From positions 44,702,001-44,766,000 of the forward strand of contig OZ024746.1 in NCBI GenBank assembly GCA_964016885.1: a DNA stretch of 64,000 bases. The letters are read 5' to 3'. Position 1 is the first letter of the stretch, and each line of letters starts with the position of its first letter. A model generated the notes under the pieces. That model saw only the letters and a program-made list of their open reading frames with translations, was not told the DNA's origin and made no database searches. Source of the DNA: Eledone cirrhosa (Eukaryota). Positions 29,756-33,813 of the stretch are shown piece by piece. Both the position numbers and the translations under genes were made by a program.

Positions 29756-30361
29756 ATATATTTATTGATAATAACAACAATTCAAAATTTCAGGTCCGTT
29801 TGGGAACAGAGTTCAAATTGACCAATGAGAATACAAACAATTTTATGCAGTTTGGTGTGTGTATATACATGTAATTAACTTCGTACACATATTTACATAA
29901 AGATATATGTTCACATGCATACGCATGCCAAAAAGATGTATGCAAATACAAAAATTCAAGGCTAATGTCTCTGTAAGTCTATAATCCACAGATAAAATGC
30001 GTATAGACACATAAATATGAAATAAATGTATACACACATTCATATACTCACACATATTCGTACACTCACACACACACGCGCGTATATGCATAAACATACA
30101 CATAACTACGAACATACATACACACACACACCCCCACACACATATATATGTGCATATAGTATTATCATAAGCATATGGACATTAATGCACGCACATAAAC
30201 ACTGCCACACATATTTAGATCAGGATACAGAAATTAGGTGGGAGGGGGGGAGAGGTCAGTATTCAACGGTTTCGGCAGACTGCCTATTTATAGATGTATC
30301 TATAAACTTAGAAATAAAAAGAAAAGAAAAAGAAAAAAGAAAAAAGAAATATATCAAGAAA

Positions 30362-30392
<31 letters not shown>

Positions 30393-30874
30393 CACACATA
30401 CACACACACACACACACACATATATATACATATACATATATATATACACATATATAAACACATACATATATATATACACATACATATACACATATATACA
30501 CACACACATATACACACACATATATATATATATATACACACATATACATACACACACATATATATATATAAACAAGTAAAATATAAAGTATATATCGATA
30601 TACATACATATAGACATATAAATAAATACACACGCATACACACACATACATATACATACATATACATACACATATATATAAACACATACATACACATACA
30701 TATACATACACATACCATATAAATACACATACACATACATAGACGCATACATATAGAGACACATACATATACACATATAAATACATAGACACATACACAC
30801 ATAAACACATATATATATATTTTTTTTTTTACACACATATACACATACACGCATACATATATATATATATACAC

Positions 30875-30927
<53 letters not shown>

Positions 30928-30987
30928 TATATACACTCACAACACTCGTATATATATACACACTCATACATATACACACATATACAT

Positions 30988-31048
<61 letters not shown>

Positions 31049-31193
31049 CATATATATACAGTCACACCTACATACATATATATATATAAATACACTCATA
31101 TATATACACACATACACATACATACCCACATATAAATATATATATATATATATATAAATATATATATATATACACACATACACACATACACAT

Positions 31194-31258
<65 letters not shown>

Positions 31259-31722
31259 TACATACACATACATACACATATACACACATACATATATATT
31301 CACACACACACACCTACACATACAAACACATACACATATATAAAGATATATATATACACACACACACAAACATATAATAAATATATATATATATATATAT
31401 ATACATATATATACATATACATATACATACATACATACATACATATACATACATATATATACACACATATACATACACACATACACACATACATACATAC
31501 ACACACACATACATACACACACATACATACTCATACATAGACATAGATATATACTCACACACACATACGCACTTACATATACGCATATATACAAATACAT
31601 ACACATCCATATATGCGTATATACATACAAACACCACTACACGCTCACACAACTCAGACATACAAAGAAAAAGGTATATACATATACATATATACACATA
31701 TAAATAGAGATACATATACACA

Positions 31723-31754
<32 letters not shown>

Positions 31755-31791
31755 CCCACACACACGTACAACTATAAACACACATACAAAC

Positions 31792-31826
<35 letters not shown>

Positions 31827-31839
31827 CACACACACAAAG

Positions 31840-31914
<75 letters not shown>

Positions 31915-32185
31915 TATACATACATACACATACACACACACACATATATAGACATGCACACACATACATACATACATACATACACATACACATACATATA
32001 TATAAAAAAAAAAAAAAATTAATACACACAGTCAGACAAATATGCACACACATACATATACATATATGTATATATATATATACACACACACACATACACA
32101 CACACACATACATATATATACACACATACATACACACACACATATATATATACATACATATACACACATCAACTACAAATATACA

Positions 32186-32218
<33 letters not shown>

Positions 32219-32528
32219 TATACATATTTTCACATATATATATATATACATATATTATATTATAATAATAAATAATATATATATATATATATACATATAT
32301 AGACATACATATATATACACACACACACACTCACATATATATGCGCACATACGTACACATATACACATACACACATATACACATAGACATATACATGTGC
32401 ATACATGTACATACGCACATATACCCACATAGATACAAAGATACACATATATATAGAGAGACATACATATACATACACATATATACACACACATACATAC
32501 ACACGTACATATATATACATACACGTAT

Positions 32529-32605
<77 letters not shown>

Positions 32606-33813
32606 TATACACACAATCATACACCCTTATTTGCATGCGCATATATGTATTTTTATACTTACAAATAAACACCCAAACATATATACACCTACCTACATAT
32701 ACATACATACATACACGCTTACAAATACAAATAATAATAGTAGGGGGGGAAAGGGTGGGGGGAGAAGGGGATTATAGTAAATATATGTTTCAAGAAACAT
32801 AGAATATTAATCTGTATTTGGATCTCAATATGTGTTTACATAGTTTCAGTATTAGGAAATGCAAGAAAGAAGGCAAAATTATGCATTTCAATATAAGTAT
32901 ACCATTAATTATAGGTTAACTAAACTAAAGATAGTTAATATATTGATTTCTAAGGTGTAAATTACTTAGGTTTATAATATTTGAAGCAGAATTTTGAAGT
33001 TAAATAGTAGTAGAGTATTAATTATAGTATAACTAAATTAAAATTATTAACGTTATGGTATCAATTTTAGGAAATGAATTTAGTAATAGGGAAAAAACAA
33101 ATAAAGTATTACATCGGTAGTAGAATATAAATTATAGGTTAACTAAATTAAAAATTATATATTAATTTCTATAGTATATGTTAATTAGGTATATAATAAA
33201 TAAAACAGATATTGTATTTTATCAATAGTAGAATATAATTATATGTAAACAGAAATTAAAATTAATACATACACATATACATATACATACATATATATAT
33301 ACACATATGTATACATACATACACATACACATATATACATACATATACATATTTTTTCAAAAATTGCAAAGAATATATTAACTATGTATACATCCAAAAC
33401 CCATCCCATTCTATGATTACATGACACTCTGCAATCCGTCTGTATTAGGATACTAATTTTAAGCCAATTAAATTAAATTTTTAGGTTGACCAAATTTAAA
33501 ACCAAATTATAAATATATTTCTAAAATGTATATTAATTAGGTCTATAATACTAAAAATTATTTCTCTGTCATTGAATACACGATATTTTGTTATATTTTA
33601 TCCGTAAAGGAATTTTAATAAAGGGTTAAATAAATTAAAATTAATCTATAAATTAAATTACTAAGTATATATTAGTAATATTTAAAGGTTTTTCACAATT
33701 TATGATTACACAATATTTTATATTCTCATCTGTAGTAGAATTTTAATTAAATTAAATTTATAGGTTAACTAACATTTAAATTAAATTATATATTAATTTC
33801 TAAAATAATGTTA

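Follow-up and report, generated by a model that had tools for sequence, protein, structure and literature searches.

Published families of the Hydra clade of Penelope-like elements (PLEs) are 1.4-3.0 kb long, and Hydra-1_Obim of Octopus bimaculoides measures 2,507 bp, according to the available text of Craig et al. (2021, PMC8557442). In penaeid shrimp, young Penelope copies (>98%) with syntenic internal simple sequence repeats (SSRs) were reported, and the accessible part of that paper takes these SSRs to travel along with the element and to lengthen later (Yuan et al. 2021, PMC7878876). Since the shrimp Penelope consensuses given in the available part of another source reach 7.6 kb (PMC3124438), long Penelope elements are not unique. 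The birth of microsatellites in retroelements and their targeting by retroelements have been reviewed (Grandi and An 2013, PMC3812793), and Waldo, Mino, Kibi, Koshi and Dong are described in the accessible text as targeting microsatellites (PMC3812793; Tay et al. 2010, PMC2887409). The available portion of a repeat annotation of O. vulgaris lists active Penelope families and gives no such cargo detail (PMC13282606), and that of a retrozyme preprint (10.64898/2026.07.22.740005) contains nothing bearing on cargo. What is known comprises the architecture, motifs and (TA)n target of the Hydra clade and Penelope elements with SSRs in shrimp. The literature covered, with most subscription papers outside its scope, contained no report of a Hydra element bearing a strand-polar, target-like tract of kilobase length.

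A 64,000-nucleotide stretch of the Eledone cirrhosa genome (hereafter the window) was analysed. Self-BLAST revealed an inverted repeat, 29538-33081 against 38855-35327, with 97.0% identity over 3,581 columns, the sole one around the ORF. The main arm lies on the minus strand. It comprises a 5'-truncated ORF (33814-35326, with its stop at 33814) corresponding to residues ~311-810 of an 810-aa reverse transcriptase (RT) and GIY-YIG protein, an AT-rich proximal 3' UTR with short local duplications (32610-33813), a TA/TG mosaic referred to here as the microsatellite cargo (30362-32609, TRF), and a distal 3' UTR of unique and semi-repetitive sequence (29538-30361) that extends as far as 29538, where the first of the fixed 3' ends lies. 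A motif scan located a type I hammerhead motif in this distal part (29603-29753, minus strand). Only this arm has a 134-bp extension (29404-29537, minus strand). The second arm, consisting of the 3' 3.5 kb of the same element, is inverted and joined at the truncation point (35327-38855, plus strand); its cargo of 2,228 bp (35803-38029, TRF) and its hammerhead motif (38639-38789, motif scan) are on the plus strand. (TA)n adjoins both outer ends of this two-armed copy, and the host target tracts were delimited by TRF at 29162-29403 on the left and 38856-38966 on the right, without strand assignment. The left flank (28000-29160) had no match among the loci listed.

The first-pass annotation had described ~2.7 kb of microsatellite lying between the ORF and a terminal ribozyme and mirrored "interruption-for-interruption". 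Its position was correct, as the ORF stop at 33814 and the hammerhead motifs flank the tract. The tract itself is real, but the proper tract is 2.25 kb long, and the rest consists of semi-repetitive margins. The mirroring is nearly exact: between the two cargos (2,249 and 2,228 bp; 71% matches by TRF for the mosaics at 30362-32609 and 35803-38029), there are 13 substitutions and 18 small gaps, the majority of the gaps being of even length, and the adjoining unique UTR of 1.3 kb shows 3 substitutions and 5 gaps. Because the arms differ in substitutions and gaps, they do not represent an identical assembly duplicate. The main-arm cargo contains 14 runs of (TA)8 or longer. Elsewhere in the window, other fold-back or inverted-arm elements stand beside microsatellites (17350-20097, 24043-24371, 48683-51228 and 61712-62086). 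There is also an interspersed repeat of ~190 bp, tandem in places, which is presumably a SINE (9058-9261, 11167-11440, 14864-15264, 25405-25764, 27286-27489, 53097-53289, 58517-58708 and 59365-59559).

An uninterrupted natural copy with an ORF of 810 aa was found at L021:4871-7303. The full unit is about 7 kb long and includes ~0.3 kb of 5' UTR, 2.4 kb of ORF and 4.3 kb of 3' UTR. The single ORF encodes an RT with YRDD together with a GIY-YIG-like nuclease at its C-terminus (IVY-x-YIG motif). The motifs given for the Hydra clade are present as SDKTG, with DKT replacing DKG, and as VRWR, in which R substitutes for the K of RWK. The CxCx5C linker appears as CNCRNKANC, and CxxC and CxH, which surround the conserved E and N, appear as CRLC and CNH; a simple pattern search for the paired-His motif of CCHH found none in the last 130 aa. 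Pfam gave no match for the 810-aa protein. A profile of 10 relatives matched retron RT weakly (E 0.006), a related window fragment matched GIY-YIG weakly (E 0.004), and 119 relatives at E <= 1e-20 were obtained among 7,995 candidates. Several hallmarks of EN+ PLEs were seen, namely partial tandems, an inverted 5'-truncated arm and an extension on one end. By its motifs, architecture and target, the element is classified as an EN+ Hydra-clade PLE. The length generally below 3 kb, a descriptive rather than a diagnostic trait of this clade, does not apply to it, the excess over that length being 3' UTR. Naiad and Chlamys, which have an N-terminal GIY-YIG and no canonical hammerhead, were considered and rejected, since the nuclease here is C-terminal and a hammerhead motif is present. 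Hydra ORF fragments of other families occur in the window at 18230-19479, 52325-53674 and 55317-55895, and hammerhead motifs of other families at 1436, 54431 and 56832 on the minus strand.

The hammerhead motif consists of an 8-bp stem I, a CUGAAGA core, a 116-nt stem II and a palindromic stem III, with GUU as the predicted cleavage triplet. It is situated on the sense strand, close to the element's 3' end, and has a fold z of -5.3. In 16 copies, the core was invariant and 98% of cells were paired; the single compensatory pair found in these copies was reached by 57 of 500 shuffles, i.e., covariation was not above chance. Rfam produced no match in the window at the gathering score. The stem II hairpin (116 nt; window 29622-29738 and 38654-38769) was nearly invariant, and subfamily flanks differed by 10-20%. 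A sister family, designated family C, also has a long stem II, of different sequence.

Element ends were found to stop at two fixed points 134 bp apart. The 5' UTR of the next unit opens with these 134 bp, and tandem copies (L034, L055, L064 and L080) continue through it to the ORF; the extension was present on 67 of 137 ends. Tiny copies dominated: 41 of 65 unbiased 3' ends stopped within the last 493 bp. In 23 of the 41, the copy started at positions 277-285 of the last 493 bp, which is the 5' edge of the hammerhead, suggesting that transcription starts or reverse transcription stops there. Usually these 23 were back-to-back pairs of ~215 bp with differing junctions (window 29538-29752; L042, L048, L054, L058-L060, L062, L063, L069, L075 and L077).

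A genome-wide search was made with the anchor proposed in the first-pass annotation, which had suggested that the tract was copied as part of the element. With at most one mismatch, 1,066 matches were found in the 3.0-Gb genome and none in the reversed control. The anchor is thus not confined to this locus, the outcome that the annotation had named as refuting its view. Linkage was studied for 68 anchors in 60 stretches, picked from 95 exact places among the matches listed. Downstream on the same strand, the hammerhead part was present for 64 of the 68 anchors, 3 were at a stretch edge and 1 was without it. Upstream, the ORF was found for 39 and the proximal UTR for 21 (60 of 68 together), 7 were truncated and 1 was at an edge. 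Complete cargos were recovered from 69 arms, with the ORF directly upstream in 49. The order ORF, UTR, cargo, hammerhead and fixed 3' ends was constant at unrelated loci with different flanks on many contigs. Since the tract lies upstream of the hammerhead and the fixed ends, the cargo is internal UTR and not 3'-transduced flank. Thus, the cargo is co-transposed with the element. It is true that the tract resembles an ordinary host microsatellite and that the window copy is a local inverted repeat, as would be expected of a host flank duplicated at one site or of an assembly fold-back. The anchors are dispersed, however, the landmarks keep the same order on many contigs with different flanks, and the arms differ by 16 substitutions and 23 gaps, so that such an origin has practically no chance of being correct.

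The relation of the element to its target was also studied. (TA)n adjoined 128 of 137 element 3' ends, and each cargo contained 4-20 runs of (TA)8 or longer. Therefore, as the first-pass annotation had supposed, the element carries and targets the same repeat type. Ten nested insertions were found in 8 of 69 cargos (150 kb of cargo): two short copies of the same family, one other Hydra element, one other hammerhead element, four copies of an element of ~620 bp and two pieces of one repeat with a tandem unit of ~590 bp. In the other 192 kb of the same arms, there were two nested insertions (p = 0.006), a comparison in which detection methods differed and intact flanking parts were required. The further proposal that such elements seed their own target sites was upheld by two self-insertions in 69 cargos, but none of 57 unbiased insertion ends lay in older cargo of the family. 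Self-seeding is therefore real but numerically minor: the TA runs are usable targets and too few to change the supply. One of eight candidate nested inserts (L052) proved to be a cargo edge and was dropped, and inspection of the one flank that had seemed to resemble cargo (L066) showed it to be host sequence. The ~620-bp element, which looks to us like a non-autonomous RTE derivative, was inserted five times in the sampled arms (cargo of L023, L039, L124 and L125; proximal UTR of L128), mostly in TATG-type runs, and its copies were 91-97% alike where compared. The repeat with the ~590-bp unit sits in a (TA)n run of the L108 cargo, with a short piece in the L046 cargo.

Other Hydra families were compared. 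Family B, locus 4 of the first-pass annotation, is represented in the window at 21746-23915 (minus strand) by an ORF end, ~330 bp of TA/TG cargo, a hammerhead and a (TA)n target. The tract that had been placed in its 3' UTR at 22400-22800 is indeed there, at 22461-22790, and is multi-copy: an internal anchor occurred 66 times, and 12 of 20 fetched copies spanned the tract, which measured 304-347 bp in 10 of them. The cargo of one copy (L088) carries a 1.3-kb insertion at a TA, which resembles a mariner transposon. Sister family C (25780-27300, plus strand) has an ORF end and a 3' UTR without the TA/TG mosaic. Among the other families found, it was the closest, with about 70% DNA identity to the main family in the nuclease part. 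Where stop and hammerhead were both located (3 of 16 copies), a related long-stem hammerhead followed the stop by 1.0-1.6 kb and there was no (TA)8 run between them. The 3' UTR of family C contains an internal (TTC)n, (TTC)57 in the window (27064-27236) and (TTC)4-18 at a similar place in 8 of 16 other copies; hence, this is a third family with an internal microsatellite, of a different motif. From stop to hammerhead, the mosaic was scant or absent in most other Hydra families in the fetched DNA; some of it may be present in two single copies.

Cargo length differed by subfamily, from 0.7 to 2.4 kb. In a subfamily tree of 62 of the 69 arms, namely those with enough flanking UTR, which are not independent of each other, the group means along the ladder were 1,577, 1,874, 1,902, 2,041, 2,072, 2,112 and 2,271 bp, and the most divergent arms had cargos of 735, 1,259 and 1,618 bp. 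Short landmarks were common to the shortest through the longest cargos. The length differences were situated in slots between these fixed landmarks, with ~17 TG per 100 bp in the six younger groups. One clade had an internal duplication of ~640 bp; the cargo of the window lineage showed no excess of block duplication (31 repeated 12-mers against 66 expected from a Markov control). Internal divergence was similar in six groups (0.008-0.014), and the midpoint root of the tree fell beside the youngest clade, which suggests recombination. Because the six groups are about equally diverse, the midpoint root lies where it does and the arms are not independent, the order of growth is less sure, and its direction inside the family was not proven. 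Nevertheless, the sister family without the mosaic and the subfamily-specific lengths make it likely that the cargo grew inside the element, and the lack of a (TA)8 run in family C makes a gain in this lineage likely.

Taken together, it is highly probable that the mosaic forms part of the 3' UTR of a young Hydra-clade PLE and is copied along with it to further (TA)n sites, and it likely grew within that UTR step by step. Growth would have proceeded by repeat slippage with occasional block duplication. Reverse transcription of the RNA would start at a cut in (TA)n. Every insertion would presumably acquire two arms, the main one and an inverted 3' one, which would allow a single event to deliver the cargo twice, and expansions in a source copy would pass to its daughter copies. 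The cargo is likely tolerated rather than needed, since the majority of insertions are not long enough to contain it and the sister family lacks it.

Two other accounts of the origin and persistence of the cargo were weighed. The cargo could have been captured once from host DNA if an element had inserted in a TA tract upstream of the hammerhead end of an older element, the intervening microsatellite thereby becoming a new 3' UTR with only minor change later. Elements do nest in TA tracts, which makes such chimeras possible; the UTR diverges faster than the ORF (82-90% against 96-98%), and even the shortest arm already has 735 bp with the shared landmarks. However, an end swap is unnecessary, since the ORF end is shared by family C, as is an extended hammerhead of this kind. 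The threefold difference in length among subfamilies is spread over many slots, and a tract upstream of fixed 3' ends is not an ordinary 3' transduction. A single capture is therefore considered unlikely. Slightly less credit is given to selection for the cargo, according to which the RNA of a U-purine repeat, able to pair with itself in any register through A-U and G-U, would be of use in folding, in priming at (TA)n, in export or in the binding of proteins. The TG:CA polarity, which holds for each of the 69 arms once nested inserts are set aside and recurs in family B (48:8), would agree with this, as would the net length being highest in the group with the most sampled arms. Against it, the 41 of 65 unbiased 3' ends that stop inside the last 493 bp hold no cargo, several Hydra families have no such tract, and large length variation and nested inserts are tolerated.

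This polarity was pronounced. The sense strand of the main-arm cargo contained 398 TG and 9 CA, with 20% G and 2% C; in the main family as a whole, TG:CA was ~40:1 on the RNA strand, with all subfamilies leaning the same way, and family B had the same direction (6:1). Lone interruptions after a TG were 69 TG to 2 CA in cargo, where they are not independent, and 24 to 27 in host tracts. Host tandem arrays can also be polar, through their founder unit. Between sister arms, there were 18 A/G and 8 C/T changes in the cargo and 3 and 9, respectively, outside it. Rare and majority bases were compared in 46 young arms, and no excess of A>G was detected outside the cargo: among UTR singletons, A>G numbered 18 on 644 A and T>C 33 on 856 T (p 0.32), and the corresponding counts were 10 and 14 for shared variants (p 1.0) and 7 and 6 for ORF singletons. 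The polarity likely reflects inherited early TG units together with some presumed bias of the RNA or reverse-transcription phase.

The contribution of the element to the microsatellites of the genome was estimated. In a systematic sample of 39 stretches of 10 kb, 12.3% of the sequence was alternating repeat (12.7% by TRF with periods up to 6), and there were 1.39 (TA)8+ tracts per kb. Hydra ORF fragments made up 2.2% of this 390 kb, in which 16 hammerhead motifs were found against none in the reversed control. The hammerhead motif occurred 9,705 times genome-wide, and 22 of the first 65 exact matches carried cargo, which averaged 546 bp per arm. Scaled up, this amounts to 5.3 Mb of cargo against about 368 Mb of alternating repeats (about 1.4% of microsatellite bases) and, out of about 4.2 million (TA)8+ tracts, to about 30,000 (0.7%); these values treat one-mismatch hits like exact ones, miss older copies and cover the main family only. 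One sampled stretch held old cargo, 1,329 of 47,802 repeat bases (2.8%). The main family thus likely supplies 1-3% of the simple repeats of the genome. The contribution to microsatellite load suggested in the first-pass annotation exists, but it is small.

Two stronger interpretations of these data must be considered. The polarity could make the cargo a fossil record of mutation in the RNA phase, a self-pairing (UA)n being edited A-to-I or miscopied to yield TG on the sense strand; each round of retrotransposition would then turn pure (TA)n into TA/TG mosaic, exported with fresh target sites. Adenosine editing is extensive in cephalopods, and editing of the RNA would give the direction observed. 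The TG:CA ratios of ~40:1 and 6:1 in two families, the interruptions in cargo as compared with host tracts and the A/G-rich changes between sister arms are consistent with this interpretation, but the unique parts show no A>G excess and this direction would equally be expected if TG units already present had slipped, so that it remains doubtful. It is less plausible still that such PLEs are a main source of the microsatellites of this genome through a loop of self-seeding, which is the strong form of the idea in the first-pass annotation. The two self-insertions, the 2.2% of Hydra ORF fragments and the existence of at least two families with TA/TG cargo point in that direction. The ratio of about 5.3 Mb of cargo to about 368 Mb of alternating repeats and the absence of older cargo at the 57 unbiased ends argue against it, and the polar tracts of host DNA that were inspected (L173, L178 and L169) resemble local tandem arrays.

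The element provides a countable case in which the same repeat is both targeted and exported, and its subfamilies record the build-up of a kilobase-long compound microsatellite. As for mobile elements driving microsatellite load, a prolific family accounts for about 1-3%, which is far from dominant. A repeat annotation that begins by masking simple repeats would break this element of 7 kb apart and overlook more than half of the 3' UTR, and any marker placed in a tract of this kind would be multi-locus. The bias towards TG on one strand, a testable oddity, is the part that merits follow-up.

Compared with the Hydra clade as characterized in the available text of PMC8557442, the element is similar in its C-terminal GIY-YIG, in DKT, RW[KR], the CxCx5C linker, CxxC and CxH and no CCHH, in its type I hammerhead, which is on the sense strand and has a CUGAAGA core and a GUU triplet, and in its (TA)n target, inverted 5'-truncated arm and extension at one end. 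It differs in length (about 7 kb against 1.4-3.0 kb), in having a 4.3-kb 3' UTR with 2.2 kb of microsatellite, in its 116-nt stem II (against 80-100 nt for whole motifs with flanks) and in its extension of 134 bp (against 30-40 bp). The shrimp study, in its accessible part, offers one example pair and genome-wide overlap counts, without clade, UTR position or polarity and, unlike the present case, without subfamily growth or nested insertions (PMC7878876). Like the retroelements treated in the available text of PMC3812793 and PMC2887409, the element seeds or carries microsatellites. In those cases, poly(A) tails, short proto-microsatellites and terminal repeats are involved, whereas the tract described here is internal, mature and kilobase-long, and it corresponds to the target of the very element that carries it.
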